From the NCBI GenBank assembly GCA_964513845.1, contig CAZENT010000001.1, positions 149,278 through 213,277 on the forward strand: DNA of 64,000 bases, in the 5' to 3' direction. A model generated the notes under the pieces. That model ran no database searches and was not told where the DNA came from. It worked only from the letters and a program-made list of their open reading frames with translations. Positions 9,438-63,254 of this stretch are shown here, one piece after another. Each line of letters opens with the position of its first letter. Positions within the stretch are counted from its first letter, which is position 1. Source of the DNA: an uncultured Pseudomonadales bacterium (GTDB taxonomy: Bacteria; Patescibacteriota; Microgenomatia; UBA1400; MFAQ01). The translations under genes and the position numbers were made by a program.

Positions 9438-9703
9438 TAGAAAAGGGTTTTTTGTTTGGGTAATATTTCAAAATTATGCAAAAGATCTGGGACTTCAATT
9501 TTTTTAATTTTCGATGTATGGCCAGAAATTAGTGAAATTTGAGAGGGTGAAATGGAAAAATATTTGGCAAGGGACTTGATGATAGCGTCGTTGGCTCGGC
9601 CATCAACTGGAGGCTCTTTGACAGAAACAGCATAAGTATTCTGATCGATTTGAACCACCTTTTCCTGTTTCTTTTTGGGTTTGGCAATTATGGTTAGGAG
9701 CAT
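9437..9703 (-). CDS. DUF167 (YggU) family protein
   Basis: DGRANDAIIKSLAKYFSISPSQISLISGHTSKIKKIEV matches the YggU signature (dGkAN ... sG.tsr.K). Confidence 0.75.
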   Translation of the reverse strand: MLLTIIAKPKKKQEKVVQIDQNTYAVSVKEPPVDGRANDAIIKSLAKYFSISPSQISLISGHTSKIKKIEVPDLLHNFEILPKQKTLF

Positions 9704-9704
9704 A

Positions 9705-33347: not shown

Positions 33348-36300
33348 CTGTGTCGTTACTGGGGTTGTCGTTTCCAGTTGGGATATTTCCTCCAGGGGCG
33401 GGTTCATCTTTGATTGTGGCAGGAAGACTGGCTCCGGGTTCATCGACTGGGGCTGGGAGGGAAACTCCTCTATCGGGGATAGAGAGGGATGAGTCTGGTC
33501 GGCTGACCAGTTCTCCGGCGGAGTGATCGTCTGGTTTGATGGTGCGGGAGGAAGAGTCAGATCCTGTGTTTGAAGAGAATCTTGAGGAAGACTGTCTTGA
33601 GGATCCGGTGTCTGATTTGGGTTCATTTTGGTTGTGGTGATTAATAACTTTTGTTTCTGATGCAAGAATGCCCTTTGTTTTAAGAATCTCAAGGGCAGCA
33701 CTGGTAATTCTTAACTTGCCTCCCTGGGACGAGGATTTGGCTAGCTCAAGAGCCTCAGTGAAACTTACCCATTTGAAATCATTATATTCTTCATCTGAAG
33801 GGAACTTCAAACTACTTGATGAGGAGGTGGCATAGAGAAAATAATAGGTTTTCCCCTTCATGGTGACAGAAACACCGGAGTCGGTTTTTAGATCTTTAAG
33901 TCCTTGTTTGTCTGGTGGAAACTCAATACGATCGACAGACACAAAAGTAGGCTTGAAACTGGTTTGTTTGACAAAATCTTGTCCTAGCTCTTCTGTCATT
34001 TCGCGTTTGAAAGCGTCCGTAAGAGTCTCTTTGTTGTCTACTCCCCCTTGAGGAAGCTGCCATAGATTGTGAATTTTGTGATAAACGAAAAGAATTTTGC
34101 CGGAATTTATGAAACAACCAACTACGCTGGGACGGAAACCTTCTTGACGGTCTTTGTCTAGATCTTCCACGTTTGGCTCTTTTGAGGCGTTGGTCGGAGA
34201 TTGCCGCGTCGCTTCGCTTCTCGCAATGACGGGAGTTGGTTGAGATACTGTTGAAGCGGGTTGATTGCTTGGCGAGGATTGCCGCGTCGGAGTATCTTCT
34301 CTTTTCTGAGATGGACTGGTGTGCGATGCCGTGGTTGAGGCAGATAATGAGGGGACCTGAGAAGGGTTTTGAGTACGAGTATCAGTTTGTGCAGGAAATG
34401 ATTGAGGCGTATACGGTTTGGGGGATGATTGTTGAGGGCGATATGGCGTAGCTTGGGAATACGATCGATCTTCACCCCGAGGTCCTTGAGGCTTAGATGA
34501 TGATCGATAGTCTTGTTTGGGAGGAGGTGCGCTGGGAGAATAGACTGAGGCTTGCGTCATGTCGAGAGCTTCGGTTTTGCGGTAGTACTGCTCTTCGCTC
34601 ATGGCGATAATTTTTTCGCGATTGCCATTTTTGTTTTCTGGGAGAGGGAGGGTGGTGGCAGCAAAAGGATTAGAAATGGAAGCGTTGACGGAAATTTTGA
34701 CGATGATTTGATATCTAGCTAACCCAACAAGATCATCTTGGGTATAAAAATTACCGAGCTCGTTCATCAGACGATTAGCATCGGCGGCGCCAACAACAAA
34801 ACTAATGAGGGTACCGGCGTTTCCAAAAATAGCATCTTGAATTTCTATGGGAAGCTGAGCGGTGTACTGGTTAGCAAGAATCAGGTTCAAACGATACTTA
34901 CGAGCCTCGGAGAGAATTTTGATAAAGGATGTGGTGGCAAAGTTCTGGAACTCATCAACATAAAGAAAGAAGTCTTTTCTTTCGCTTTCGGCCATGTTGG
35001 CACGATTCATGGCAGCAATTTGAATTTGAGAGATAAACATGGCACCCAGAAGAGCGGCGTTGTCTTCTCCAATTTTGCCCTGAGGTAGATTGAGGATGAT
35101 GATTTTGCCGCTATTCATCAAGTCTTCAAAATCAACCGTGGACTTGGGATGACTAATGATGTCACGAATTGTGGGTGAAGTGATGAATTGACCAACTTTG
35201 TTTAGAATAGGAGAAATAGCTTCGGACTGGAATTTTTCGGAATATTTGTCGTATTCATCGTGCCAGAAATTGTGAAGCACTGGATCTTGAACTGCGGCAA
35301 GATATTCTTCGCGCCAAGGTTTGTTGGTGAGAAGTCTGGGAACATCTAGAAGAGTGGCACCAGGCTTGGCTACCAAAGTGAGAAGGGTGTTTCTGAGAAT
35401 GTATTCCAAACGAGGACCCCAGGAGTTGCCGTAGAGTTTACTGAAAATGGACACGATACCGGAAGCAACTAGCTCGGCATAGGCTTGGTTTTTGACGTAA
35501 AGAGGGTTCAGGTGAAATGATTTACCAACAACAGAAGGATCAAGATAAGCAACGTCGTTAATTCTGTCTGCTGGGATGTAATCAAGAAGATGTTCGGCCG
35601 TGTCGCCGTGAGGATCAACGAGAGCCATGCCCTCTCCATGACGAATGTCACTAATAGCCATGTTGGCCAAAAGAGTGGATTTACCGGTACCGGATTTACC
35701 CAAAACGTAAACGTGACGACGGCGATCTTCCCCTTTTTTCATGCCAAAAGAAACCATGCGATTTTTGTATTCGGTTTTGGCAAAGAAATTAATTTCGTGC
35801 TTTTCTTCTTCAGACATGTCTTCGGCAATGGGAAGATTGGCTGGCGGTTCTCCACGCAGAGTTTTACCCCAAGCAATACCTTTGATGTTGGCAAGATTAA
35901 AGCCCGGAAGATGATAGATGGCGGCAATTTCGGCGTAGTTTAGATATTGATATTGATTTGAGTAACGAGCGGAACGATCAATGATCATTTCACGAAGTTT
36001 TTTGAGTGAGGTAGGGCTAACAACCTTGAGTCTAAAACTGTTGCCTTCAGACAAAGAATAGGTACCAAAGGCGGCCGAAATTTGAGAGATAAGCTGATTT
36101 GAAGAGGTAACGCTTGAGGAAACAGCAACCAGACGAATATCACAACCAAAAGCTTGATAAACGAGTTTCTTTTCAATAAAAGGCTTTTGGGTACTGGGCT
36201 GAGCCTTTACGCCCTCAGCGACAGGAGCGGGTTCTAATGACTTTCGAAGGGCTTTTTGCCAGTTTACTGGAGCAGCAAATAGACAGATTTGGATGACTGC

Positions 36301-43527: not shown

Positions 43528-43983
43528 ATGATGGATTCATCTTCAGAAATTGTTGGGGGTTTGGGAGTGGCTAAAAACACAGAAGAGCCAAAAACAATAA
43601 TTGATGGTTTGAGCGAAGTGCCTGAGAACATTGTACAAGAGGAAACAATTGGAGATTTAGGAGTTACCTTAGAAGATTCTCCTGTAATTGAAGTTGAGGA
43701 ACCTCTAACTGGAGACTGGATAACTATTGGACTCATAGGCGTTAAGCGACCTAATCCCGAGTTTGTTTCTGAAGATGAGGCTGTAAACTTGTTGGATGAG
43801 GTATTTCTTAAATTAAGAAAGGTGGCTGGAATGAAAGATGAGCTCAAGAAACAATTTGGTGATTTGTCTGACAAGTGTATTGATTTGATAAATAAATTGA
43901 AACGAGGGGAAATGTCTGCAAAAGAAGCGTTGAGCCAGCTTGATGGGGAAAAACAAAATGATGATAAAATAGAGGAGCGTTGA
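43528..43983 (+). CDS. Acidic hypothetical protein
   Basis: ORF only; no motif recognised. Confidence 0.3.
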   Translation: MMDSSSEIVGGLGVAKNTEEPKTIIDGLSEVPENIVQEETIGDLGVTLEDSPVIEVEEPLTGDWITIGLIGVKRPNPEFVSEDEAVNLLDEVFLKLRKVAGMKDELKKQFGDLSDKCIDLINKLKRGEMSAKEALSQLDGEKQNDDKIEER

Positions 43984-44096
43984 TCGAGGCTTGTCACTTC
44001 GGGAGCAAGGGAAGAAATCAAAGAAAACTTTTATAGATTCCGGATCAAGTCCGGAATGACTTTGAAACTAGAACCCAAATAAACAAGTACAATACG

Positions 44097-44161
44097 AGGT
44101 GGTACCGCCTGAAATGGCCCTCGTTAGTCCCCTTCACCGGAGATTAACGAGGGCTTTTTTT
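44097..44161 (+). promoter_or_regulatory. T-box-like antiterminator/terminator element in the valS leader
   Basis: GAGGTGGTACCGCC (T-box core, consensus AGGGUGGNACCGCG, with UGGU to pair a tRNA with A73) followed by terminator GCCCTCGTTA-N18-TAACGAGGGC-TTTTTTT. The 5' half of the terminator can pair with the T-box to form the antiterminator. Confidence 0.6.
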
Positions 44162-44214
44162 AATATAGAATTATTTATATAGATTTCGGGTCAAGCCCGG
44201 AATGACAAAGAAAA

Positions 44215-46302
44215 ATGAATAAAAATTACGACCACACACAGTACGAAGATAAACTCTATAAAACTTGGGAGGAAAGTGGCGTGTTTACTCCCCCGACAGG
44301 AGAAGAGTTAAAAAAGAGCGGTAAGAAACCTTTTACAATTATCATGCCTCCACCCAATGCAAATGACCCATTGCATATTGGGCACGCGATGTTTGTGACG
44401 ATTGAAGATATTTTTATTCGCTTTCATCGTATGAAAGGTGAGGCTGCCTTGTGGCTTCCAGGCACGGATCATGCAGGAATTGAAACACAGTTTGTTTTTG
44501 AGAAAAAGCTAGCCAAAGAAGGCAAGAGTAGATTTGATTTTGATCGTGATGCTTTATACAAAATGATTTGGGATTATGTAAAGAAAAATGGAGAAGTGGC
44601 CATCAACCAAATGAAGAAGTTAGGAGCGACCGCTGACTGGAGCAGATATAAATTTACGCTCGACCCTGAGATTGTGACCGAGGTAATTAATACTTTTAAG
44701 AAGTTACACGAGGACGGGCTAATCTACCGGGCCGAAAAATTGGTGAATTACTGTACTAAGTGCGGCACTGCGTATTCTGAGCTTGAGGTAGAACACCAAG
44801 AGAGAGAGGACAAGATTTATACGATCGACTATGGCTTATTGAAAGTGGCCACTACAAGACCCGAAACCATGTTGGGTGACACAGCTGTAGCTGTAAACCC
44901 TAAAGACAGTAGATTTAAAAATTTAATTGGCAAAACGGTTACGGTGCCGCTTATTAATAGGGTGATTCCCATCATTGGAGATGAAATGGTGGATATGGAG
45001 TTCGGGACAGGAGCAGTAAAAATTACTCCAGCACATGATCCAAATGACTGGGAAGTTGGAGTTCGACATAATTTGGAAACAATAGCCGTTATCGGCACAA
45101 ATGGAAAAATGACGAGTGATGCGGGTGAGTATGCCGGACTATCGGTGGCTGCTTGCAGAGAAAAAATATTAGAAGATTTGAGGATCAAGTTGGTGGAAGT
45201 AAAACCATACTCTCACAGCGTGGGTGTTTGTTATCGCTGCGGACGCACGATTGAACCGCTACCTATCAAACAGTTCTTTATCAAAGTAAAACCCTTGACA
45301 GAAAAAGCTTTGGCTGCTCTCGACTCAAAAGAGACCAGAATTCTAGGTGCGGGAAGAGACAAGATTTTGCGTCACTGGCTAACGAACCTCCGCGACTGGA
45401 ATATTAGCCGACAGATTGTCTGGGGAATTCGTATGCCTGTATGGTACAAAGACGAGAACAAAACTGAGTATGTGGTTTCGGAAATATCGCCAGGCGAAGG
45501 ATATATTCAAGAAACAGATACTTTTGATACCTGGTTCTCTTCCGGTCAATGGCCCGTGGTTACTTTGAAAACAAATAAACCCGGAGATTTCGAAGCATAT
45601 TATCCGACTGACATTATGGAAACTGCATACGACATTCTCCCCTTCTGGGTGATGAGAATGATGCTTTTGTCTATTTACTTAACTGGAAAATCACCGTTTA
45701 AGTATGTATATCTTCATGGTTTAGTGCGAGATGAAAAAGGACAAAAAATGAGTAAGAGTAAGGGAAATGCAATTAATCCCCTTGATCTGTGCACAAAATA
45801 CGGCACAGATTCAGTACGTATGGCTCTGGTGATGAGCACCACGGCAGGACAAGATAGTAATACGGGTGAAAATAAAGTGCGAGGAATGCGAAATTTTGGA
45901 AACAAGATTTGGAATGCAGGAAGATATATTGATGAGCTTAAGAACCCAAGAGCTCAAGAGCCAAAGGATGAAGAGAGTTTAACTGTTAAAACCAATACCG
46001 GTGAAAAAGATGAGGAGTTCAAAATTAAACTACTGAGCGTCACCAAAGAGATAACCAAGCTCCTTGATCAGATGAAGGTTGGGCTGGCGTCTGAGACGGT
46101 CTACAACGAGTTCTGGCATTGGTTTTGTGATGAGGGTATTGAACTGAACAAGCAAAAACTAGTTAGTGACACGGCTTTGAATGAGGGATACAAAACAATG
46201 CTAGCCCTGCTCCACCCGTTTGTGCCTTTTGTAACTGAAGCAGTATGGCAAGAAATGTATGCAAATGAGGGAATGTTAATCTCATATTCGTGGCCAAAAT
46301 AG
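44215..46302 (+). CDS. valS: Valyl-tRNA synthetase (short form lacking the C-terminal coiled-coil)
   Basis: PPPNANDPLHIGHAM (HIGH), TDHAGIETQ, KMSKSKGN, and a ValRS-type editing domain. Confidence 0.75.
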   Translation: MNKNYDHTQYEDKLYKTWEESGVFTPPTGEELKKSGKKPFTIIMPPPNANDPLHIGHAMFVTIEDIFIRFHRMKGEAALWLPGTDHAGIETQFVFEKKLAKEGKSRFDFDRDALYKMIWDYVKKNGEVAINQMKKLGATADWSRYKFTLDPEIVTEVINTFKKLHEDGLIYRAEKLVNYCTKCGTAYSELEVEHQEREDKIYTIDYGLLKVATTRPETMLGDTAVAVNPKDSRFKNLIGKTVTVPLINRVIPIIGDEMVDMEFGTGAVKITPAHDPNDWEVGVRHNLETIAVIGTNGKMTSDAGEYAGLSVAACREKILEDLRIKLVEVKPYSHSVGVCYRCGRTIEPLPIKQFFIKVKPLTEKALAALDSKETRILGAGRDKILRHWLTNLRDWNISRQIVWGIRMPVWYKDENKTEYVVSEISPGEGYIQETDTFDTWFSSGQWPVVTLKTNKPGDFEAYYPTDIMETAYDILPFWVMRMMLLSIYLTGKSPFKYVYLHGLVRDEKGQKMSKSKGNAINPLDLCTKYGTDSVRMALVMSTTAGQDSNTGENKVRGMRNFGNKIWNAGRYIDELKNPRAQEPKDEESLTVKTNTGEKDEEFKIKLLSVTKEITKLLDQMKVGLASETVYNEFWHWFCDEGIELNKQKLVSDTALNEGYKTMLALLHPFVPFVTEAVWQEMYANEGMLISYSWPK

Positions 46303-46355: not shown

Positions 46356-47045
46356 TTATTCTTTAGGAGTTTCTTCGGACTTGGCTTCACCTTCAGCTGG
46401 TTTTTCACTTTCAGCGCCTTCTGCTGGAGTTTCGGCACCGGTTGCATCTTCGGAAACTTCTTCGGTAACGAGAGGCTCTTCTTCTTTTTGAGGTTCTTGT
46501 AGAGAGACAACCATTTGTTCAGGGTCTGTCTTGATTTCAACTTCAGCACCAACTTTGGCATCGGAAACCAAGAGGTGATCGCCAATTTCTTTCAGCGAAC
46601 TGATGTCAAAAACGATACTTTCCGGAATTTCAGTTGGTAATGCTTCAATTTCAATTTCATTTAGAGATTGAGAGAGAACGGCCATGTTGGACGAAATCAG
46701 TTCTGACTCACCAATTATTTCAACAGGTACATTGGCGGTAACTTTTTCTTTAAGATTGACTTGGTGAAAATCAACATGCATTTTGTCACCAGTCATTGGA
46801 CTGAAAGCGACAGAAGTAACAAGGGTGGGGCGTTCTTTGTCTTCTCCTTCGACCTTAACCCAGATAAGACTGGTTTCGCCAGCTTCTTTGTAAACACGAT
46901 TGAAGTCGACGGCGTTAACTTGGATGGCCTGACTTTCAATGGTTTTTCCAAATAGATTGGCTGGTACAATACCTGTTCGGCGAAGTTGTTTAACCTTACT
47001 ACCCAGAACGGTTCTTTTGTCGGCTTTCAATATATACTTTTGCAT
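46356..47045 (-). CDS. rplY: 50S ribosomal protein L25 / general stress protein Ctc with an acidic C-terminal extension
   Basis: MQKYILKADKRTVLGSKVKQLRRTGIVPANLFG matches the L25 N-terminus. Confidence 0.8.
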   Translation of the reverse strand: MQKYILKADKRTVLGSKVKQLRRTGIVPANLFGKTIESQAIQVNAVDFNRVYKEAGETSLIWVKVEGEDKERPTLVTSVAFSPMTGDKMHVDFHQVNLKEKVTANVPVEIIGESELISSNMAVLSQSLNEIEIEALPTEIPESIVFDISSLKEIGDHLLVSDAKVGAEVEIKTDPEQMVVSLQEPQKEEEPLVTEEVSEDATGAETPAEGAESEKPAEGEAKSEETPKE

Positions 47046-54718: not shown

Positions 54719-56101
54719 ATGGAAATTGACGCCAGTCATCTGTGGCAAGCCGTTTGTGGAGACCTTTCCGTGTCGATGTCTCAGGCCGGTTTCAATGGAT
54801 TCGTAAAACCTTGTTTTATAAGGACGGTGACTCCTATTGATAACGAGAGAATTATCGTAGAGTTAGCGGCGCCGACAGCGTATCATGTGCGCACAATTGA
54901 CGAAAAATATTTTAGTTCAATCAAGCAGTCGATGGAGAAGATCTCACATAAAAAATGTGACGTGGCTTTAATCGTCGTTGAAGCAATAAAGGAGGAGAAA
55001 GAAACTAAAACTAGCGCAAGATCTGAAAAAGAAGAAGCAAATATGAATTTGTTTGCCTCACCAGAACCAGATAAACAAGCCGGCAATAACTTAAATCCAA
55101 GATATTTGTTTGAAAATTATGTTGTTGGTAGTTCAAATCGATTAGCTTTTGCGGCCGGAAAAGCGGTGGTGGATTTCCCCGGAACAAGACACAATCCTTT
55201 GTTTATCTATGGAGGAGTAGGAGTTGGTAAAACTCACTTAATGCACGCCGTGGGCCATGAACTGGTAAAAAAAGGGGTTGGGAAGGTGGTTTATGTAACC
55301 AGTGAGCAGTTTACTAATGACTTAGTATCATCACTTCGCTCAAAAATGACAGATGCTTTTAAAAAGAAGTATCGTCAAGTTGGCGCTTTGTTGATTGACG
55401 ATGTGCAGTTCTTTGGCGGCAAAGACTCAACTCAAGAAGAGTTCTTCCACACTTTTAACGAGCTAACAAATAAGTCGGCTCAAATTGTGATGACTTCCGA
55501 TAGAAAGCCTCAAGATATTGAAGGTTTAGAAGACAGATTAAAAAGTCGCTTTTTGGGAGGAATGGCGGTAGATATCGGTTTGCCCGATTATGAAATGAGA
55601 CTCGCTATCTTGCGCCAGAAAGCTCAAGAAATTAAAGTAGAAGTGGAAGATGGTGCTTATGAGTTGATGGCTAACAACTTCAACACTAATGCACGTGAAT
55701 TAGAAGGCACTTTTGTTAAATTGGCAGTCGGAGCAAGCTTGGAAAATGGAGTGCTCACAAAAGAAATGGTGCAACAAACAATGGGTTTGCCGGCTAACTT
55801 TGTGAAGGAGATAAAAGTCAGACCGATCAAAGTAGTTTCGACGGTAGCTAAGTATTTTGATTATAGAAACAAAGATCTTCTGGGGACAAGCAGAAAGGCC
55901 GATCTGGTGGTGGCTCGACATATTGCGATGTTTCTTTTGCGCGATACTTTGAATATCCAACTGGAAAAAGTGGGGGAGATTATGGGTGGAAGAGATCACA
56001 CGACTGTGATGCACGCAGTGGAAAAAATGAAGGATGAAGTGAGTAATAATGCCGATGTACGGCGTAAAATAACGGCTATAAAACAAGCGTTATACACTTA
56101 A
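54719..56101 (+). CDS. dnaA: Chromosomal replication initiator DnaA
   Basis: AAA+ motifs GGVGVGKTHL and LLIDDVQF, plus the domain IV HTH DHTTVMHA. Confidence 0.95.
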   Translation: MEIDASHLWQAVCGDLSVSMSQAGFNGFVKPCFIRTVTPIDNERIIVELAAPTAYHVRTIDEKYFSSIKQSMEKISHKKCDVALIVVEAIKEEKETKTSARSEKEEANMNLFASPEPDKQAGNNLNPRYLFENYVVGSSNRLAFAAGKAVVDFPGTRHNPLFIYGGVGVGKTHLMHAVGHELVKKGVGKVVYVTSEQFTNDLVSSLRSKMTDAFKKKYRQVGALLIDDVQFFGGKDSTQEEFFHTFNELTNKSAQIVMTSDRKPQDIEGLEDRLKSRFLGGMAVDIGLPDYEMRLAILRQKAQEIKVEVEDGAYELMANNFNTNARELEGTFVKLAVGASLENGVLTKEMVQQTMGLPANFVKEIKVRPIKVVSTVAKYFDYRNKDLLGTSRKADLVVARHIAMFLLRDTLNIQLEKVGEIMGGRDHTTVMHAVEKMKDEVSNNADVRRKITAIKQALYT

Positions 56102-56407
56102 ATATCCACATCTTATCCCCAGGACGTGGATAACTTTCGAAAAAGTGGATTAGTAGGGGGATAAGCACAAGGAGTGTTGATAAAGATACAAAGTTATCCA
56201 GAAAATTATCAACAGAAAATGTTAGTTGTTCTGAAAATAATAGTCACAACGGTTGAATAAATGATTAAAAAGTATGGATATAACAAACGAAGATAAATTA
56301 ACAACAAGAGTAATAGGCAAGAGCCACGCTTATAATCAACAAATCAACACGACCTATTACTATCATTACTATTTTTTAGATTAATATAATAATTAGAAGG
56401 AAATTCT
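56102..56407. other. oriC: cluster of at least 7 DnaA-box-like 9-mers followed by an AT-rich DNA-unwinding element
   Basis: ATATCCACA, TTATCCCCA, GTGGATAAC, TGTTGATAA, TTATCCAGA, TTATCAACA and others within 56102-56214. AT-rich stretch 56340-56400. A perfect TGTGGATAA box also lies upstream of dnaA at 54664-54672. Confidence 0.75.
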
Positions 56408-57517
56408 ATGAAAATAATTGTTCAATCAGGAGAGCTTAAAAAATATCTGGGAATAGTAAGCAGGGGAGTGAGTAGCAGGCCTCAGTTACCAATATTGTCG
56501 GGAGTTCTTCTAAAAGCGGAAAATGATGAGGTGAGTTTAGTGGCAACCGATTTGGAAGTGAGTTTTTGGTTGAGTCTTTCGGCGAAGGTAGAAGAAGAGG
56601 GTGAAGTGGTGGTTCCGGCAAAACTATTTTCTGAGCTGGTTTCAGGTTTTCCTTCCGGCAACGTAATGATAACTGTGGAAAAACACGTGGTAAAAATTGA
56701 AGTTGATGGAATTGTATCGGAAATAGTGGGCCAGGGAGCTGAAGACTTCCCCAGTATCCCCAGAGCAAGTAAGGCTCAAGTAGTTCTTCGAAGCGGAGAC
56801 TTTAGACAAAAAGTGGATAGAGTGTGTGTGAGTGCGGCCAGAGACGACACTCGACCAGTGTTGACTGGAGTACTTTGGGAAATTAATGAAGAAAAAGTGT
56901 CTTTGGTGGCGACTGACGGATATCGATTGTCGGTGGATAAGTTGACTTTGTCAAAAACAGAACTAGAAAAAGAAACGAGATTAATTTTACCTGCAAGATC
57001 TTTGCAAGAAATTTCAAAAATGTTGGGTGAAACCGGTGTTGATGTTTTTTCTTTGGAGTTTAGTAAGGAAAATCAACAAGTCATTTTTAAAGTGGGAGAG
57101 ATTGAGGTAACTTCGAGATTGATTGCAGGCGAGTTCCCGCCTTATCAACAGATTATGCCGAATACTTACTCGTCGAGAGCTGTCTTTGGTAAAGCAGAGA
57201 TACTAGAAGGCGTCAAAAGAGCTAATTTGTTTGCTCGAGATAATGCCAATATTATTAAGTTGCAAATGGAAAAAGATGGTGTGGTGGTTCGAGCTGAGAG
57301 TTCTCAGATTGGTACAAGTGTAAGTAAGGTAGAGGCAGTGGTTGAGGGTGAAGAATTAACAGTGGCGTTTAACGCAAGATATTTACTGGATTATCTGGCC
57401 AGCAGTACTTCGGAAAAAGTAGTATGGGAAACAGAGGGAGAACTGAAACCCAGTGTTTTTCGTAACGAAGATGAAGAAACTTGGGTGCAGGTGGTAATGC
57501 CTGTTAGGGTGCAGTAA
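56408..57517 (+). CDS. dnaN: DNA polymerase III beta sliding clamp
   Basis: Three-domain clamp (369 aa) in the standard position after dnaA. Confidence 0.9.
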   Translation: MKIIVQSGELKKYLGIVSRGVSSRPQLPILSGVLLKAENDEVSLVATDLEVSFWLSLSAKVEEEGEVVVPAKLFSELVSGFPSGNVMITVEKHVVKIEVDGIVSEIVGQGAEDFPSIPRASKAQVVLRSGDFRQKVDRVCVSAARDDTRPVLTGVLWEINEEKVSLVATDGYRLSVDKLTLSKTELEKETRLILPARSLQEISKMLGETGVDVFSLEFSKENQQVIFKVGEIEVTSRLIAGEFPPYQQIMPNTYSSRAVFGKAEILEGVKRANLFARDNANIIKLQMEKDGVVVRAESSQIGTSVSKVEAVVEGEELTVAFNARYLLDYLASSTSEKVVWETEGELKPSVFRNEDEETWVQVVMPVRVQ

Positions 57518-57971
57518 TCCAGTCGACTCTTACAAATTCAAGATCTTTTTCTGAAATATCGAAATAGTTTAGCCATGAAAATAAGTTTTCTCTGTTTTCT
57601 TTTACAGGAGTTTCGATTGTAATTGTGTATGTGGCGTTTGAATAATCGTATTCAATTTGGAATCCTGTTTCGATTATCGGAGAATTTTTACGAATAAAAG
57701 ATAAATTTTTGTCGATTCTAGCTTTGTCGGTTTTACTATAATCTTCTAAATTTTTTTTAAATTGTGTATTCCATTCTTCTGTTGACTCAACTGGGTTTAT
57801 CGGAGGTAAGACAATTGAAGCGCTTGGAGTTGATATTTCCGGAATGCTTTTTGTTATTTTTTTTGATAATGAAATAGAGTCAATGATTTGAATTATGAGG
57901 AAAAGAATAACAATCAATAATATTCCTCCCAGTATTTGATATTTTTTTGAAATATTTATTTTCATAGACAT
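57504..57971 (-). CDS. Bitopic membrane protein (N-terminal TM plus periplasmic domain), candidate VirB8/PrgL-like T4SS component
   Basis: TM ILGGILLIVILFLIIQII. Sits last in the T4SS-like gene array. No motif-level support. Confidence 0.35.
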   Translation of the reverse strand: MSMKINISKKYQILGGILLIVILFLIIQIIDSISLSKKITKSIPEISTPSASIVLPPINPVESTEEWNTQFKKNLEDYSKTDKARIDKNLSFIRKNSPIIETGFQIEYDYSNATYTITIETPVKENRENLFSWLNYFDISEKDLEFVRVDWITAP

Positions 57972-57976
57972 TTATA

Positions 57977-60721
57977 TTATGGAACAACTGCCCACATTCG
58001 GAATAGTTTGTATGATGTATCAAGAGTGTGAATATAGTTTTCACCCATCCATGGATCCATAGTGGTTATTTGATTTCCTTCGTGGGCGACGATGACCAGA
58101 AGATGCCCACACCATCCTCCACCACAAGCCATATCACCTGTTGCTAAAATCATGCCACAGTTCGAGAGAACGCTGTCAGCTTCGGCAAGATCTGATCCGA
58201 TATCGGTAACTGAAAGTCCACTTTCGGAAAGAATTTTTAAAGAGTTAAAATTGTCTGACCCACAAGAAACGTAAGGTATTTTGCCATCATAGACACGTGG
58301 TGGAGAATTGCTATCCCAGTAAACATATCCTCCGATTGAGTGTTGCCAATGCCAGACATCAGTAACATTTGAAGTTACACCAAAGCCGTTTAAAATCATG
58401 GTCATAGAAGCACTACTACAACCTGATGACCCAATTCGACAACTGCCAGCTGGTGAACAGTTTTTACAAAAAACGCCTGCCCATTCGGGGTCTCTTTGTG
58501 AAATAAAAATTCCTTCGGTATTAGCACAACCTGTGGCAGAGGTACGAGTTTTTGGAATTGATTCGAGTTGAACAAGAGTAGAAATAAGGGGGGCGACAAC
58601 AATGGAAGAAACATAAAAGAAGAAACCTACAAGTACGCCTAAAACAAGAGTGCCCACAGCAGAACTGGCGGCGGTTGTTGTGGCGGAACCGATTCCGGAA
58701 AAAAATTTGGATACTGCTGAAACAGCACCAACAACAGGAACGATGAGAACATCTCTAGTTTTAATTTTTTCACCATAGACAGAAACAGCTACTTTTTGAA
58801 CGACATTGACAGTTCCTTTTATGACAGAGAGAATAATGTCTCCAACAAGCCAGATTATAGCAGGAATAGCACCAACTCCTGTTGCTGCAAGACCAAATTT
58901 TGCACCAATACTGACTGCCAGTTTGGATAGAGCTTTCCCAAGACCTTTTTTTGTAAGTTCGGTGGCGATTTTCGTTCCGGCTTTAATGGCTGCTTTTCCT
59001 GCCGTAGAAGAAAGAATTTTTTTAACAACATAGTCACCTACTTTTTTGCCAACCCACGATCTAACGGCACCAATAGGATCTTCAACTATTCGAAAAATAT
59101 TGCCAAAAACAACGGGGAATTTGTCAGATATTTTTGAGAAAAATTTTGTGACAGGTTGAGTTAATTTTGTCCAACCAGTGATAATTTTATTAATATTTTT
59201 TCCTATAGGAGTGTTTGCGAATTTTCCAAGCACAACAGGCACTTTGGTGATTTCTTTTCCTAAAGGTGAGTTGGCAATTCTTCTGATCTGAGTGCCGGCT
59301 GCATCAAATAAATCCTTATTGGATTTGAAAAGTTTACCAAGTTCTGATTCGGGATTGTTTTTTGCGTAGAGACGGGCTTTGGCAAGTAAGGTTGGGGTGA
59401 GCCCTTTGCCGTATAAAAGGATAGCTTGGGGAGAAAGATCGGGATCTTGAGTTTTGGAATTAGTTACTAAAGCAGCGGACATCTCGGCTTGATAGCCGGC
59501 GTGAGCATTTAGCTCTCCAGGCATGTTGTGACGAATCGCTGCTTCTAGAAGCGCTGCGTCGTCGAGAGAAGAAAATAGGCGCGGCTGAACACCATTGTTT
59601 TCGAGATTGGAATGAATGGAGATAAAGACATTGTTGGCGAGCTCAATTCGATCGAGAGTGTCAGGGTCTTTTGATAGTCTTGTTTGACTGTCTTTATTAA
59701 ATTCTTGAAAAGCGACAGCTTGATTGTCAACAAAGACATCGAGTTGTTTGGGAAGATTTTCTATTTTTTGAGCAAGTTTTTGATTTGTTTCGGTGAGAGT
59801 TTTAATCTGAATAAGTTTGATTTCCAGATCTACGACTATATTTTGTTTGACTTCTTCTGCGTATTTTAAGAGAATAATTTCGTTTTCAGCAATTTGAGCA
59901 GTTAGGGTGGCTGCTTGTGTGGTTTGAGTATTGACCGCGTCGTAGACAGAGTGAACAAAATTTGAAGAAATTTTAGATAGATTTTTTTGATCTTCGGCTG
60001 ATAAATCTGAGATGTTAATCAATAGTGAGGCGGATTGAATGGCAACATCAATATTGGTAACACAAATGGAGTTTAGCTCCACAGCCTCTTCGATGATTCT
60101 GTTTTGCGCTTCTACAGATAACTTTAAAAAGCTTTCATGAGTAAGAGCAACTTCTCTCACTGCTGCGTAAGAAGCAGCTAAAGCAGTTTTTTTTGAGTCT
60201 GATTTTGGAGAACCAAGCGAGATTAATACTTTATCTGCGTCTTGAAACTTTTCTCCTCTGGCTTGTCTTTTTTGTTTGTTAAGAAGAGCTTTTTGCTTTA
60301 TCTTTGAATGGGCAATAGCTATTTTGACCTGTTCGGCAACCGATCTCTGAGAGTTTGATTTTATCTCTTCGCTTTCGAGAAGGGCTTTGTTTTTCTCGTA
60401 CTCAGCAACTAAAGACTCGAGTTCTGGGGGAATGGAGGCTTCGGGTTTTGTTTCCTCTTCTTCGTTAAGAGAATTGAGTTTAATTATTAGCTTTTCGATT
60501 TCACCTGAGCCGGCAATATATTTTTGAAAAGAGTAGACGTCGATTATTCTAGGATCAATACGATCATCAGGGAAAAATTTAGGCCAGTATCCTTCATACA
60601 ACGAATAAGCTTTGTTTAGAATTTTTAAAATTCTAGAATTTAGTTTGTCTTCTGAAACAGCCAAATACGAAAGAGAGTTCTTTAGATCCTTAATGTCTTG
60701 CGAATAATCATTTTTTGCCAT
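57977..60721 (-). CDS. T4SS-associated membrane protein with a C-terminal papain-like cysteine peptidase domain (C39-like/CHAP-like); PrgK/TcpG-type cell-wall hydrolase analog
   Basis: Coiled-coil N-domain (~560 aa), amphipathic Lys-rich repeats, 2 or more TMs near residues 600-700, and a C-terminal domain with candidate catalytic Cys (GSSGCSSASMTMIL) and His (GGWCGHLLVIVAHEG). Confidence 0.5.
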   Translation of the reverse strand: MAKNDYSQDIKDLKNSLSYLAVSEDKLNSRILKILNKAYSLYEGYWPKFFPDDRIDPRIIDVYSFQKYIAGSGEIEKLIIKLNSLNEEEETKPEASIPPELESLVAEYEKNKALLESEEIKSNSQRSVAEQVKIAIAHSKIKQKALLNKQKRQARGEKFQDADKVLISLGSPKSDSKKTALAASYAAVREVALTHESFLKLSVEAQNRIIEEAVELNSICVTNIDVAIQSASLLINISDLSAEDQKNLSKISSNFVHSVYDAVNTQTTQAATLTAQIAENEIILLKYAEEVKQNIVVDLEIKLIQIKTLTETNQKLAQKIENLPKQLDVFVDNQAVAFQEFNKDSQTRLSKDPDTLDRIELANNVFISIHSNLENNGVQPRLFSSLDDAALLEAAIRHNMPGELNAHAGYQAEMSAALVTNSKTQDPDLSPQAILLYGKGLTPTLLAKARLYAKNNPESELGKLFKSNKDLFDAAGTQIRRIANSPLGKEITKVPVVLGKFANTPIGKNINKIITGWTKLTQPVTKFFSKISDKFPVVFGNIFRIVEDPIGAVRSWVGKKVGDYVVKKILSSTAGKAAIKAGTKIATELTKKGLGKALSKLAVSIGAKFGLAATGVGAIPAIIWLVGDIILSVIKGTVNVVQKVAVSVYGEKIKTRDVLIVPVVGAVSAVSKFFSGIGSATTTAASSAVGTLVLGVLVGFFFYVSSIVVAPLISTLVQLESIPKTRTSATGCANTEGIFISQRDPEWAGVFCKNCSPAGSCRIGSSGCSSASMTMILNGFGVTSNVTDVWHWQHSIGGYVYWDSNSPPRVYDGKIPYVSCGSDNFNSLKILSESGLSVTDIGSDLAEADSVLSNCGMILATGDMACGGGWCGHLLVIVAHEGNQITTMDPWMGENYIHTLDTSYKLFRMWAVVP

Positions 60722-60726
60722 ATCAG

Positions 60727-62574
60727 TTACAAAGATTCTGCTTGTTGTTTGCGTGCTTCGAGTACTTCTGAAGGCTTGGTAGTGGAAAGAGCGTGTTCGT
60801 CTGGGGAGGAGATTACTTTGATGGCAACATGATTTTGTCCGGCAAAGAAAATACCTTCTCCGACACCGGCTGAAACTAAAAGTTGTTTTTCTCCTTGGGA
60901 GAGATAGAAAACTTCGGCTATTTGATTGATAGCGGCTGAAGATTGTTTGAGAAGGAATTTGAGGGCAGAGTTGGTAATGATGGCTTTACCATAGGGAGAG
61001 GCTAAAAAGTCGTCAACGTTTTGAGAGATGACAGTAACACCAAGATAGTATTTACGGGCACGCTTGACAAAACCTTGGAGAATCTTGGCAGAGTCTTCGT
61101 AGCGCATAAGATACCAGGCCTCATCTACAATGAGCATGCGTTTACGAAGATTTTTGCGTATTTCTGTCCAGACAAAGTCAAGAATCATAAACATAACGAT
61201 AGGACGAATCTCATCAGCAAGATCGCGCATGGAAAAAACTGTAATAGGAGCATCGATATCGATATTTGATTGCTGATCGAAAGTGCCTTTGATACCGCCC
61301 ATGACGTATCGCTCTAGTCTGGCAGCTAGTACCTTGGCTGTTTGATCTTCCATACCGATGATGGCACGGTAAAGATCTTCCATACGAGGAGGTTCTTGGG
61401 TGTGTGTGGCAGGATCATCAGTGATGTTTTTCTGACGATAGGTGAGAACGAGGGCGCGATTCATGGTGGCCTCTTCCATGGGGGACATGGCACCAATCAT
61501 GATTTTAAGTAAGGAAATGAGGAAAAGATATTTGTAGCCCATTTCATCTTCAGTGCTTTCTAAAGGCCTCGCAATTTGAAACGGATTAATTTTGTGGGGA
61601 GAGTTGGCAGAAAAAGAAATGTAGTTTCCGCCTACGGCTTTGGTGACCATTTCATATTCGTTTTCCGGATCGAGAATGATGATTTGGGTGTCAAACATTA
61701 AAGAGCGAAGAATTTCTAGCTTAACGGCATAGGACTTACCGGCACCGGCTGTGGCCAGAACGAGCATGTTGGCGTTTTCGAGAGAGAAACGATCGAAAAT
61801 AATGAGAGAGTCGTTGTGAGCATTGATTCCGTAAAGAATACCTTGGTTGTCTGAAAGTTCGGAGCTAGTGAAGGGAAAGGTGGTGGATAGAGCAGTTGTG
61901 TCCATGTTTCTTGTGATCATCAGCTTGTCTTTGCAGTATGGAAGAGTAGTTTTGAAGGCATCCTCCATAGAGAGTGAGGCGACTTTGCTGATAATGAGCA
62001 GAGAAGCGAGCATGCTTTGAACCTGAGAAGTGACAGTGTTGAGCTCTTTTTCGGACTCGGCAGAGATACTGATGTAAAGAGAAAACTGGAAAAAGCGTTC
62101 GGCACCTTTGACTAGCTGTGCCTGAAGTGTTTTAGCGTCTTCTAAAGCCGCTTCGGTGGCGGCTTGGGGAATACGACCTCTTTCGATGTCAGTGTTAATC
62201 TCGGCTTCCATTTCGGCCAGGCGACGCCTGAGGCTATCAAGAGTGTCTTTGGAGTCACTAGGATAGATGTACATGGAGATATCAAGAGAGTGATTGAAGT
62301 TTACGAGAGGAGCAAGCCAGTTGGCGGAAACATAACGAGGGTAACCAGTGACAAAAAGAGTGCGAATGTAGTTGTCGTCAATCTTGATAAAAGAAAAATC
62401 AACTTCGATGGAGGAGGGAGCTAAAACATCTTGAATTGAAGCGGCGTTGGTAGTGTCTTTGATGGCCGAAAGAGGAGCTCTGGGCTTTTCTTCAGTTGAT
62501 GTGACAGGAGCCGCCGAGACAACGGGTGGTGTTTCGGTCTTTTTGGCACCAAGAGAAAAGAGATTTAACCCCAT
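60727..62574 (-). CDS. virB4: VirB4/TrbE/CagE-family T4SS ATPase (C-terminal about three quarters)
   Basis: CagE_TrbE_VirB region (YIRTLFVTGYPRYV), Walker A LATAGAGKSY, Walker B MLIVDEAWYLM, and DPENEYEM. Confidence 0.8.
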   Translation of the reverse strand: MGLNLFSLGAKKTETPPVVSAAPVTSTEEKPRAPLSAIKDTTNAASIQDVLAPSSIEVDFSFIKIDDNYIRTLFVTGYPRYVSANWLAPLVNFNHSLDISMYIYPSDSKDTLDSLRRRLAEMEAEINTDIERGRIPQAATEAALEDAKTLQAQLVKGAERFFQFSLYISISAESEKELNTVTSQVQSMLASLLIISKVASLSMEDAFKTTLPYCKDKLMITRNMDTTALSTTFPFTSSELSDNQGILYGINAHNDSLIIFDRFSLENANMLVLATAGAGKSYAVKLEILRSLMFDTQIIILDPENEYEMVTKAVGGNYISFSANSPHKINPFQIARPLESTEDEMGYKYLFLISLLKIMIGAMSPMEEATMNRALVLTYRQKNITDDPATHTQEPPRMEDLYRAIIGMEDQTAKVLAARLERYVMGGIKGTFDQQSNIDIDAPITVFSMRDLADEIRPIVMFMILDFVWTEIRKNLRKRMLIVDEAWYLMRYEDSAKILQGFVKRARKYYLGVTVISQNVDDFLASPYGKAIITNSALKFLLKQSSAAINQIAEVFYLSQGEKQLLVSAGVGEGIFFAGQNHVAIKVISSPDEHALSTTKPSEVLEARKQQAESL

Positions 62575-62597
62575 GATTAAGTATAACCGAAAAGGGG

Positions 62598-63254
62598 TTA
62601 TTTAGGGATTAAAGAAGGGTTGATTTGAGCTGGGCTGAGTGTGGTTGAGCCTTGGTTGTAGATAGTGTAGAAAAAAGTAACAAGATCGCTGGTTGTTAGT
62701 TGGGAAGCTTTGAGCCCTAAACGAGCAAACTGTCGAATTAAATGATCGCGACGAGGATAGAGAACAGTAGAAGCTTTTTCTTCGATATACACCAGGTCAA
62801 AAGGAGGTTTTTGAGGAGCTTTGGCAAAAGGATTGAAGTTGGATTTGGACAGGCCAAGTTCGATAGCTGAAAAAGGAATAATCACATAAAACTTTTTTTC
62901 CAAAACACGGTTTTCTTTGACAAGGGATTTGACAAACTGGCGATAAGCCAGAAGCTGTTCCTTAATTTTTTGGGAAGAGACAGACTGAATACGGGTATCG
63001 ATGAGATTGAGGTAGTCGGAAATATTTTTTCTCTGGGAACGGATAAGGATTTGAACAGGGAAAGAAAGAGAGTTTAGAAGGCCAGCGTAGGCATAAATCG
63101 TAGCATCTTGTTCCTCTTCTGAGAGAAGATTGAAGTTGATGGCGGTGGTTTTGAGAACCAAGGCGGCTGAACCATCTTTGAGAAAAACGAGATGATCTTT
63201 GATGGCATAGATATCGAGATGTTCTTGGGTAGAGGCTTTGATGTTGTCGGGCAT
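62598..63254 (-). CDS. VirB4 N-terminal domain encoded as a separate ORF (split VirB4), or a frameshifted pseudogene fragment
   Basis: IKDHLVFLKDGSAALVLKTTAINFNLLSEEEQDATIYAYAGLLNSLSFPVQILIRSQRK matches the VirB4 extreme N-terminal region. It ends 23 nt before the VirB4 ATPase ORF, in a different frame. Confidence 0.5.
   Translation of the reverse strand: MPDNIKASTQEHLDIYAIKDHLVFLKDGSAALVLKTTAINFNLLSEEEQDATIYAYAGLLNSLSFPVQILIRSQRKNISDYLNLIDTRIQSVSSQKIKEQLLAYRQFVKSLVKENRVLEKKFYVIIPFSAIELGLSKSNFNPFAKAPQKPPFDLVYIEEKASTVLYPRRDHLIRQFARLGLKASQLTTSDLVTFFYTIYNQGSTTLSPAQINPSLIPK

Follow-up and report, generated by a model that had tools for sequence, protein, structure and literature searches.

The window analysed here is a stretch of 64,000 nucleotides from a Collierbacteria-like CPR genome, in line with an earlier sequence-only reading that had called the host CPR-like. 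The region of interest spans the end of a 151-aa ORF, the valS gene and the interval between them (Table 1). The identity of valS was called with the NCBIfam valS equivalog NF004349, and the encoded valine--tRNA ligase (ValRS) lacks the C-terminal ~165 residues of the 860-residue profile. The 151-aa ORF was searched against Pfam and NCBIfam with zero matches, and exact-protein look-ups of the window ValRS and of the first ORF of the window matched no record. No Shine-Dalgarno sequence was found 5' of the valS ATG. The sequence-only reading had placed a T-box-like element at 43984-44214, immediately before valS; the leader described below begins 7 nt earlier, at ~43977, and ends at 44161, the remaining nucleotides separating it from the valS start codon. 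Its total length is ~150 nt without the insertion in Stem II.

Table 1. Features of the valS leader and of its surroundings, in window coordinates.
Feature	Position	Strand	Basis and details
Upstream ORF, 151 aa	43528..43983	+	C-terminus conserved at protein level in L081
Predicted promoter P1 (extended -10, TGaTAAAAT)	43962..43970	+	Predicted; TGnTAAAAT-like boxes 6-10 nt 5' of the K-turn in all leaders
Stem I (K-turn and 6-bp helix)	43977..44006	+	RF00230 alignment, invariance, covariation; K-turn GC 43977-78, bulge GUU 43979-81, GA 43982-83, partners GA 44003-04 and GC 44005-06; helix 43984-89 with 43997-44002
Apical specifier loop CUUGUCA	43990..43996	+	GUC (Val codon) 43993-43995, then conserved purine A 43996
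Stem II	44009..44076	+	Base GGG 44009-11/CCC 44074-76; internal loop AAGAAA 44012-17 opposite AACUAGAA 44066-73; upper helix 44018-23/44060-65
Insertion in Stem II apical loop, with hairpin repeat copy 1 (AGATTCCGGATCAAGTCCGGAATGAC, 44035-44060)	44024..44059	+	Repeat family; most relatives without the insertion
A-rich single-stranded linker AAAUAAACAAGUACAAUA	44077..44094	+	15-22 nt in relatives; conserved RAGUA-HAAUR motif
Antiterminator	44095..44123	+	A1 CGAGG 44095-99/CCUCG 44119-23; bulge UGGUACC 44100-06; A2 GCC 44107-09/GGC 44116-18; loop UGAAAU; T-box core GAGGTGGTACCGCC at 44097-44110
Intrinsic terminator	44117..44161	+	15-bp stem with one mismatch, arms GCCCTCGTTAGTCCCC (44117-44132) and GGAGATTAACGAGGGC (44139-44154), then U7 (44155-44161); 5' arm reuses the A2 and A1 3' strands
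Possible second promoter (-10-like TAGAAT)	44166..44171	+	Putative, from a consensus scan; 3' of the terminator
Hairpin repeat copy 2 (AGATTTCGGGTCAAGCCCGGAATGAC)	44181..44206	+	Terminator-to-start-codon interval; most relatives without copy 2
valS, valine--tRNA ligase, 695 aa	44215..46302	+	NF004349 826 bits (cut-off 704); TIGR00422 805 bits; Pfam tRNA-synt_1, Anticodon_1

The T-box core and its UGGU bulge, which had been noticed in the sequence-only reading, were borne out by folding. The isolated 29-nt antiterminator segment adopts as its minimum free energy structure (((((.......(((......)))))))), at -9.0 kcal/mol, which is the canonical antiterminator geometry of a 5-bp helix (A1), a 7-nt UGGUACC bulge and a 3-bp helix (A2), and it matches its RF00230 counterpart with high posterior probability. 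Its 3' strand is shared with an intrinsic terminator, as expected for the T-box-type switch that had been proposed 5' of valS, and the alternative pairing of the terminator 5' arm with the T-box is clear in the folds. Of the terminator previously described, the run of seven T stood, whereas the 10-bp stem gave way to a longer one; the consensus terminator scan missed this structure, which its rules on loop size and mismatches excluded. The distance from the upstream stop codon to the T-box core is ~113 nt, close to the ~110 nt first estimated. The terminator-containing folds (-28 to -36 kcal/mol across all leaders) are far more stable than the antiterminator. Compensatory changes occur in four terminator pairs outside the antiterminator overlap, the overlapping part never varies, and both CGAGGUGGUACCGCC and GGCCCUCG are unchanged in 14/14 leaders. 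Only the segments used in both alternative pairings are frozen, which is the signature of a switch.

Contrary to the sequence-only reading, which recognised neither Stem I nor a specifier loop, both are present at the very 5' end of the leader. The base of Stem I is a K-turn (GA motif, GC-GUU-GA ... GA-GC), the U and GA of which are supplied by the UGA stop codon (43981-43983) of the 151-aa ORF, and in the RF00230 alignment AGCGUUGA...GGGAGC occupies the Stem I base with high posterior probability. A GUN specifier, which the earlier reading had suggested looking for, is found in the apical loop. The UGA and GAG of the K-turn are unchanged in 14/14 leaders, as is the GUCA of the loop, always 5' of valS, while the three loop bases preceding GUCA vary (CUU, CCA, UUA, CUA, UUU, CCC, GUU); across leaders the loop is a 7-nt YYNGUCA carried by a 5-6-bp helix. 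Two-sided changes were observed in five of the six helix pairs and in one pair of the K-turn stem. The specifier occupies nucleotides 17-19 from the predicted 5' end, with a purine next to it, and a valine codon ending in C is what the T-box "C rule" predicts (reviewed in PMC7583486). The long Stem I with its AG bulge and distal double-T-loop platform is absent, 9 nt replacing 76 positions of the model.

Stem II, the layout of which is common to the 12 subclass-A leaders, contains a purine-rich internal loop resembling an S-turn (GAA/AGUA). All bases of this loop are invariant except at the bulged position, which is G in five, A in four, C in two (the window among them) and U in one of the 12 leaders with Stem II, as compared with G in the classic S-turn. 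The base of the stem switches from GGG/CCC to GAG/CUC in one leader, and the upper helix covaries (UCC/GGA, UCU/AGA, AGC/GCU, UCAAAG/CUUUGA, CUAUU/AAUGG). The leaders of L100 and L102 are devoid of Stem II and measure ~115 nt including the terminator. The 36-nt insertion in the apical loop of the window Stem II is absent from L001, L002, L006, L007, L013, L040, L081, L082 and L087, present in L089 and found in a variant form in L004. The two copies of the hairpin repeat differ in ways that preserve the stem (A-U to G-C, C-G to U-G), and a literature search for hairpin-repeat peptides returned nothing relevant. The RF00230 alignment of "CGGAUCAAGUCCGGAA" to Stem IIA was rejected, as this hairpin is the inserted repeat, missing in most relatives.

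Only 15-22 unpaired nucleotides separate Stem II from helix A1. In this linker A..AGUA is unchanged in the 14 leaders, and an all-against-all column-pair scan for a pairing partner, a IIA/B pseudoknot or a Stem III detected no conserved helix involving it; the Stem III hairpin is absent from the leader. The GUA/UAC complementarity between linker and bulge, and that of GUCAC/GUGGU between specifier loop and bulge, were set aside for lack of covariation. Judging from the canonical consensus aAGuG-[Stem III]-AAaUa, and from GAGCG-[hairpin]-AAUU in L070, the two halves of the RAGUA-HAAUR motif may be the purine flanks of Stem III joined directly to one another.

Comparison of the valS leaders of relatives, as the sequence-only reading had recommended, brought to 14 the number of distinct homologous leaders (the window and 13 others), all located directly 5' of valS in Collierbacteria-like genomes. 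The ValRSs of these lineages are 70-87% identical to that of the window. Paired cells account for 97% across the leader alignment, and 11 pairs show compensatory changes, versus 3.4 +/- 1.3 in shuffles (0/500 reach 11) and <=1 in slid controls; Stem I, Stem II and the terminator each display such changes. The fold of the leader has a z-score of -5.45 relative to shuffles. A purpose-built covariance model derived from the leaders, scanned over the window and ~100 loci, matched valS leaders only and no second copy of the class; in the window, metG has no leader of this kind. Genomes with tsaD instead of the 151-aa ORF at this place also carry the leader. Records in which it occurs include MFAP01000001.1, LCJG01000013.1, DDWV01000001.1 and DAOORK010000001.1. 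The distribution is patchy among close relatives, the leader being missing in L008, L011, L026, L094, L096, L098 and L099. ARAGORN found no tRNA-Val gene in the window or in the relatives' loci examined. The anatomy of the leader, its mutually exclusive pairings, its conservation and covariation, and the match between codon and gene are established by these data.

The same data bear on a chance resemblance, in which an ordinary terminator of the upstream ORF would merely neighbour a T-box-like word. The RF00230 check proposed earlier gave just 18.6 bits for the window leader and 17.2 for that of L002, far below the gathering threshold of 93, and at gathering threshold the sole Rfam match in the whole window was a tRNA-Cys. 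The exact motif RGGTGGNACCGC occurs once in the 64 kb, a weak test against chance, knowing that a 12-nt word with one mismatch allowed was matched in 40/100 shuffles. What decides the matter is that five independent features follow one another in the canonical order (K-turn, codon and purine, S-turn-like Stem II, bulged antiterminator, overlapping terminator), and that their conservation in 14 leaders is supported by covariation and always located before valS, even where the upstream gene is tsaD. Coincidence is thereby effectively refuted, and we give it almost no credence. It is also worth noting that of the two failings that together were to count against a T-box, namely the lack of an RF00230 match above threshold and the lack of an antiterminator competing with the terminator, only the former was found.

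Regarding expression, the predicted promoter P1 sits in the last 22 nt of the 151-aa ORF. In the genome of the window the -10 hexamer typically ends 5-7 nt 5' of the start codon; from this typical -10 spacing, the transcription start is predicted at ~43977, the first base of the K-turn stem. Past the terminator, a TACAAT box is retained 7-9 nt 5' of the valS ATG in eight relatives, a spacing typical of leaderless genes in the window genome, and this conserved -10-like box could allow T-box-independent expression of valS. Such a box, as TACAAT or TAGAAT at the leaderless-promoter spacing, would suit a decaying relic, that is to say a T-box descendant that no longer senses tRNA and now only terminates or attenuates transcription of the upstream gene constitutively, valS being expressed from the promoter-like box. 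So would the disappearance of three or four modules regarded as essential, the repeated loss of the leader in close relatives, the loss of Stem II as well in a sister lineage, and the insertion of hairpin repeats into and beside the leader. We nevertheless consider decay unlikely for the following reasons. First, a plain terminator needs neither a specifier loop nor a UGGUACC bulge, and yet GUCA and the 15-nt core are invariant in 14 lineages while the adjacent bases drift. Second, compensatory substitutions maintain both Stem I and Stem II. Third, the repeat landed in the apical loop, the sole site of Stem II expected to tolerate an insertion.

We regard an extremely reduced T-box that attenuates transcription in response to tRNA-Val as the best explanation of the data and as a probable one. 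Bacterial tRNA-Val carries A73. The promoter, the binding of the tRNA, the sensing of its charging and the role of Stem II are predicted in the following model. Transcription would start at ~43977, from the extended -10 promoter within the 3' end of the 151-aa ORF. In the emerging transcript the K-turn and the 6-bp Stem I would form, and the 7-nt loop at the tip of this stem would display the valine codon GUC with the adjacent A. If Stem II works as in the ileS T-boxes of actinobacteria, its S-turn-like purine loop would brace the codon-anticodon helix formed with tRNA-Val(GAC). After the ~18-nt A-rich single-stranded linker, the discriminator CGAGG-UGGUACC-GCC...GGC-CCUCG would emerge. An uncharged tRNA, once bound, would pair with UGGU through its ACCA-3' end and stabilise the weak antiterminator (-9 kcal/mol), so that the polymerase would read into valS. 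With a charged tRNA, or with none, GGCCCUCG would pair with CGAGGGC to form the 15-bp terminator followed by U7 (folds of about -30 kcal/mol), and transcription would stop at ~44161.

The same switch might instead respond to another signal, such as a K-turn-binding protein of the L7Ae type, ValRS itself or a small molecule, which we deem very improbable. K-turns are protein-binding sites, that of the leader is conserved, and YbxF binds the K-turns of T-boxes (PMC7583486); moreover, the modules giving known T-boxes their affinity for tRNA are absent. Nonetheless, the loop displays the codon GUC rather than an anticodon mimic that ValRS could recognise, the UGGU bulge is the exact complement of ACCA-3', and no ligand other than tRNA accounts for the joint invariance of the valine codon and of UGGU before valS. 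In addition, the Rfam families other than the T-box gave no meaningful match to the leader.

The tRNA-sensing reading can be set against the known classes of T-boxes. Like the canonical RF00230 leaders, including those of Firmicutes valS genes, the window leader possesses a K-turn at the Stem I base, a cognate specifier codon followed by a purine, a Stem II loop of the GAA/AGUA type, a 7-nt UGGUACC bulge between A1 and A2, and a terminator that reuses the antiterminator 3' strand and ends in a U-run, and it would likewise control an aminoacyl-tRNA synthetase gene. The canonical valS T-boxes of L070 and L076, located 5' of homologous valS genes, also carry UGGU and score 150 and 129 bits, versus 18.6 here; this common bulge sequence is indirect support for the predicted complementarity to tRNA-Val. 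The canonical Stem I, a ~90-nt hairpin, holds its specifier in an internal loop and carries an AG bulge as well as a distal double-T-loop platform, whereas that of the window is a 6-bp helix with an apical codon. The IIA/B pseudoknot (F-box) and the Stem III hairpin are missing, and helix A2 opens with a G-C pair in place of the G-U of the consensus steric sensor.

The likeness to the actinobacterial ileS type, drawn in the sequence-only reading, holds for Stem I, and the loss of modules is more extensive here. The ultrashort Stem I ileS T-boxes, which are translational (Mycobacterium, Nocardia, 6UFG, 6UFM), similarly have a short Stem I on a K-turn with an apical specifier, no tRNA-elbow platform, and an adjacent Stem II with a purine loop (an S-turn there, S-turn-like here). 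In the Nocardia ileS leader the specifier ends with C18 and A19 is the conserved purine (PMC7583486), which puts the codon almost as far from the 5' end as in the window leader. By contrast, the actinobacterial leaders keep Stem III and the IIA/B pseudoknot, the latter shown to be needed for tRNA binding, while both hairpins are absent here. They sequester a Shine-Dalgarno sequence, whereas the window leader has an intrinsic terminator, as the earlier reading had held in calling it transcription-terminating. Gene, codon and host also differ (ileS, AUC and Actinobacteria versus valS, GUC and CPR).

The glyQS T-boxes, the smallest well-studied ones of the transcriptional class, resemble the window leader in acting on transcription and in naturally missing some of the middle domain (Stem II, IIA/B). 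They exemplify that T-boxes can shed modules where the codon-anticodon pairing is G-C rich. Conversely, they keep the long Stem I elbow platform and Stem III, both absent from the window leader, which has kept Stem II (except in the L100/L102 subclass). Another CPR leader, L021 from Chisholmbacteria (Microgenomates group), is also found 5' of valS and has a T-box core, AAGGUGGUACCGUG, with UGGU. Its Stem I is shortened too (39 nt versus 87 in the model), but it keeps IIA-like and Stem III hairpins, scores 36 bits and is unmatched by the covariance model of the Collierbacteria leaders.

From comparative sequence evidence, the valS leader appears to be a real, drastically shrunken T-box tRNA-sensing leader in a Collierbacteria-like genome, and a new, transcription-terminating, ultra-reduced variant of the T-box, presumably regulated by tRNA-Val. 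It has kept the valine codon loop, the predicted tRNA-end-binding bulge and the competing terminator, and it has lost the Stem I tRNA-elbow platform, the Stem IIA/B pseudoknot and the Stem III hairpin. The current view of T-boxes, which are a model system for RNA recognising RNA, was built from mutagenesis and structural work (reviewed in PMC7583486). The distal platform of Stem I is described as essential to transcriptional T-boxes for the quick capture of tRNA (PMC7583486). T-boxes with a short Stem I are said to need the IIA/B pseudoknot to bind tRNA, and Stem III, which senses the tRNA 3' end, is called "indispensable" (PMC7583486, PMC10651847). We tentatively propose, with the balance tipping slightly the other way, that a leader this reduced may still work fully as a co-transcriptional sensor of tRNA charging, even with all three of these modules gone.

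A literature search combining the T-box with CPR, Patescibacteria or related names retrieved no paper linking them, and our data would extend T-box regulation to this group. Any riboswitch in a CPR 5'-UTR is notable because these genomes are tiny and their mRNAs apparently mostly leaderless. The present leaders are invisible to Rfam-based annotation and, therefore, to the T-box databases built on the RF00230 model. Conserved, covarying and coupled to a terminator in the absence of modules held to be essential, they are naturally occurring minimal constructs in which the need for each contact could be tested, all the more so as a sister form also dispenses with Stem II. If the proposal is true, a minimal functional T-box would consist of little more than a codon loop set on a K-turn, a linker rich in purines and a bulged antiterminator, making a sensor about as large as its tRNA ligand, and such an 80-115 nt sensor would suit the engineering of synthetic tRNA-responsive switches. 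The "indispensable" modules would then be accessory or, in CPR cells, replaced by a protein or by slow transcription.

The ORF that starts at 44215 is valS: its product scores above the cut-offs of the NCBIfam valS equivalogs (826 and 805 bits), comprises the class I synthetase and anticodon-binding domains (Pfam), and lacks the C-terminal coiled-coil region, like all its close homologues (681-715 aa). As the best ValRS matches (81-86% identity) are from Candidatus Collierbacteria and other Patescibacteria genomes, the CPR context proposed in the sequence-only reading is confirmed. The features which that reading had described in front of valS (the T-box core GAGGTGGTACCGCC, the inverted repeat followed by T7, and the ORF start) were all found. 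The upstream ORF has no family match in Pfam or NCBIfam, and its C-terminus is conserved in the comparison locus L081; in most relatives, tsaD directly precedes the leader or valS instead.

Positions of the valS leader elements, neighbouring genes and related leaders (window positions unless a locus is named)
Feature	Position	Details
Upstream ORF	43528-43983	151 aa, between tsaD and valS
Predicted promoter	43962-43970	extended -10, TGaTAAAAT; within the last codons of the upstream ORF
K-turn	43977-78, 43982-83, 44003-04, 44005-06	GC 43977-78, bulge GUU, GA 43982-83; pairs with GA 44003-04 and GC 44005-06
Stem I helix	43984-89 with 43997-44002	6 bp
Stem I apical loop	43990-96	CUUGUCA, 7 nt
Stem II	44009-44076	base of 3 bp, GGG/CCC (GAG/CUC in comparison locus L007)
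Stem II internal loop		AAGAAA opposite AANUAGAA
Linker	44077-44094	18 nt (15-22 nt in relatives)
T-box core	44097-44110	GAGGTGGTACCGCC
Terminator	44117-44132 / 44139-44154	GCCCTCGTTAGTCCCC / GGAGATTAACGAGGGC, then T7 (44155-44161)
-10-like hexamer 3' of the terminator	44166-44171	TAGAAT
valS	44215-46302	695 aa; matches positions 2-696 of the 860-position profile
Small-form leader, L100	9821-9942	MFAP01000001.1
Small-form leader, L102 and L103	2842-2961	identical to each other
Chisholmbacteria valS leader, L021	2791-2982	core AAGGUGGUACCGUG

At gathering thresholds, Rfam reported no T-box in the window. The T-box model RF00230, a match to which had been proposed as a check of the element, stayed below its gathering score of 93 bits, with 18.6 bits (E = 0.044, over 43971-44125) when run in E-value mode on 43900-44300. 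The alignment is informative despite this low score: it places AGCGUUGA...GGGAGC on the Stem I K-turn base with a high posterior probability, and GAGGUGGUACCGCC...GGCCCUCG on the antiterminator, while 9 nt replace 76 model positions of Stem I.

The isolated 29-nt segment 44095-44123 folds as (((((.......(((......)))))))), at -9.0 kcal/mol, i.e., helices A1 and A2 with a 7-nt UGGUACC bulge between them, and a loop; when the downstream sequence is added, the terminator wins (about -34 kcal/mol). The 5' arm of the terminator begins with GGCCCUCG, which is the 3' side of both antiterminator helices (A2 and A1). Because the antiterminator and the terminator share GGCCCUCG, the competing pairings of a T-box expression platform are present, in keeping with the alternative pairing that had been predicted. 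The whole leader also folds more strongly than its shuffles (z = -5.45).

The specifier loop and Stem I, previously described as unrecognisable, turned out to be there as a K-turn and a 6-bp Stem I presenting GUC in its loop. The K-turn UGA doubles as the stop codon of the upstream gene, the last codons of which hold the predicted T-box promoter. The loop reads NNN-GUC-A in all relatives, i.e., a C-ending valine codon and then a conserved purine, and T-boxes with a "short" Stem I present their specifier likewise (PMC7583486). Counted from the predicted 5' end (about 43977, where the K-turn stem begins, as we infer from the -10 spacing of leaderless genes), the specifier occupies nucleotides 17-19; for comparison, the Nocardia ileS T-box has its third specifier base at C18 and its conserved purine at A19 (PMC7583486). 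A 16-nt direct repeat (AGAAGCGTTGAGCCAG / AGGAGCGTTGATCGAG, 81%; 43923-43938 / 43973-43988) spans the K-turn start, and a 12-nt inverted repeat (92%; 44026-44037 / 44255-44266) links the flank of the Stem II insertion to the valS coding start; in sequence this rich in A/T, both probably arose by chance.

The internal loop of Stem II can be drawn as a canonical GAA/AGUA S-turn above two further purine-purine pairs. Its only variable base is the bulged one (G, A, C or U), which makes the S-turn assignment tentative. Covariation is seen in the upper helix (UCC/GGA, UCU/AGA, AGC/GCU, UCAAAG/CUUUGA, CUAUU/AAUGG), and the apical loop, which varies freely among relatives, carries in the window a 36-nt insertion including a hairpin repeat. 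No conserved pairing partner of the linker was found. Its RAGUA-HAAUR sequence resembles the purine flanks of a canonical Stem III from which the intervening hairpin was removed (consensus aAGuG-(Stem III)-AAaUa; GAGCG-(hairpin)-AAUU in the Firmicutes valS locus L070), and may be equivalent to them.

To gather related leaders we used a protein-guided genome scan, a scan of metagenome contigs for a DNA pattern, and a ValRS homologue search. The first yielded 80 valS loci from species-representative genomes, 7 of which, all Collierbacteria-like, share the core, located 77-160 nt 5' of valS; the second added four new leaders, and the third, with contig look-ups, two more of a different subtype. 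All 14 distinct leaders lie directly 5' of valS. In their alignment (A3), 97.1% of the cells of Stem I, the Stem II base and the terminator are paired, and 11 pairs show both-sided changes, as compared to 3.4 ± 1.3 in shuffles (0/500 reach 11) and at most one in slid controls; covariation was also run on an earlier 12-sequence alignment. The K-turn UGA and GAG, the Stem I loop GUCA, the linker A..AGUA, CGAGGUGGUACCGCC and GGCCCUCG are invariant in 14/14 leaders. The unshared part of the terminator covaries, and the part common to the antiterminator is frozen, as expected since it must pair in two ways.

With this structure, its mutually exclusive pairings, their conservation and covariation, and a valine codon in front of valS, the best-supported reading of the leader is a tRNA-Val-specific T-box attenuator. 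The anticodon of tRNA-Val would pair with the apical-loop GUC, braced by Stem II, and the uncharged ACCA end would pair with UGGU, thereby stabilising the weak antiterminator in its competition with a far stronger terminator. No tRNA-Val gene occurs in the window or in any of the relatives' loci examined. The main rival is that the leader is a relic which now only terminates. In favour of such decay, the Stem I distal platform, the IIA/B pseudoknot and the Stem III hairpin are absent, and a review (PMC7583486) states that transcriptional T-boxes generally require a long Stem I, that short Stem I forms require the IIA/B pseudoknot for tRNA binding, and that Stem III is indispensable; the distribution of the leader is also patchy. 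However, GUCA and UGGUACC, for which a plain terminator has no need, are invariant while their neighbours drift, and compensatory changes keep Stems I and II. It is also conceivable that a protein or another ligand acts on the same switch, but this would not explain the occurrence of a Val codon and UGGU together before valS.

Boxes resembling TGaTAAAAT precede every leader. Many genes of the window are preceded by a -10-like hexamer that ends 5-7 nt from the start codon; a TAnnAT-type hexamer, beginning 11-16 nt before this codon, was counted for about 19 of the 51 ORFs, and a Shine-Dalgarno-like motif for only about five. Hence, the genome appears to rely mostly on leaderless mRNAs, and the valS 5' leader is therefore an exception. 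Ribosomal protein bS21 is reported to be absent from Collierbacteria in many cases, in a paper on CPR ribosomes (PMC9297842). Examples with the hexamer are the ORFs at 5949, 6444, 11039, 11772-12449(-), 13788-16787(-), 17502-18500(-), 19399, 42478, 43528 and 46356-47045(-). The methionyl-tRNA synthetase gene metG (19399-20811; Pfam tRNA-synt_1g) has no leader, its TAAAAT box ending 6 nt before the ATG; thus, T-box control is not common to every synthetase gene here. As a -10-like hexamer is conserved 3' of the terminator (in eight relatives TACAAT, 7-9 nt away from the valS ATG; in the window TAGAAT, 43 nt from it with a hairpin repeat in between), we suggest a second, T-box-independent and possibly leaderless valS promoter, which would also favour a relic.

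This hairpin, AGATT-CCGGATCAAGTCCGG-AATGAC, occurs twice near valS, in the Stem II loop (44035-44060) and between the terminator and the ATG (44181-44206), with differences that preserve the stem. Two long minus-strand ORFs, one for a UvrD/PD-(D/E)XK helicase-nuclease and the other for a NUDIX-domain protein, contain kindred hairpins (14154-14187 and 34198-34230) bounded by AGATTGC...CTCGCAATGAC. Across the family the ends are conserved, as AGATT(S)C ... G(S)AATGAC, and the interior varies in ways that preserve the stem; there is no Rfam match. Copies occur at comparable places in the comparison loci L004, L081, L089 and L100 (9955-9992), and none in closer relatives; this patchiness points to mobile or insertion-prone repeats. 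The hairpins belong to a small family of inserted repeats rather than to the T-box. Translated, they give peptides (IPDQVRND, ...ARND) that may resemble those of spurious ORFs in many environmental genomes.

Further downstream (54719-63254), 460- and 369-aa ORFs match dnaA and dnaN of the comparison locus L091 in length and synteny, which places valS about 10 kb from what is likely the replication origin. They adjoin a type IV secretion-like cluster (TraG P-loop ATPase, 60727-62574; TraC-like protein, 62598-63254), and L091 has T4SS pilin genes in the stretch corresponding to beyond the window end.

Similarly to the actinobacterial ileS class, which is translational, the element has an apical-loop specifier, to which it adds a transcription terminator, as the sequence-only reading had anticipated. 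It does not reach the Rfam membership score, and three of the modelled modules are absent. TBDB was built on RF00230 matches and on a class II model run on Actinobacteria genomes and on RF00230-detected sequences with a truncated Stem I, and would therefore not contain this class; in the literature searched on T-boxes with CPR, Patescibacteria or related names, no paper mentions both.

Full T-boxes (150 and 129 bits) precede valS in Firmicutes loci; their specifier is GUA, and they share UGGU with the window. The L021 leader (RF00230, 36 bits) is an intermediate, less reduced T-box with a short Stem I that keeps IIA-like and Stem III hairpins, and the ATG directly follows its terminator-like hairpin. 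A smaller form (about 115 nt) occurs in three Collierbacteria loci (L100, L102 and L103; RIFOXYB2_FULL_46_14 and GW2011_GWB1_44_6): Stem II is gone, and the K-turn/Stem I with GUCA is followed by 19-21 nt with GAGUAGAAUG and then the same antiterminator and terminator. In L100, about 300 nt (9500-9800) between tsaD and the T-box promoter appear non-coding, end in a terminator-like hairpin (GTCCGCTACTGAGCCAGCGGACTTTTTTT) and have no Rfam match at E <= 0.01. Many close relatives have no leader, and a -10 box stands immediately 5' of their ATG. The element probably works like a T-box, by tRNA binding and charge sensing, and descends from one; the picture is that of stepwise reduction and repeated loss in a streamlined lineage.
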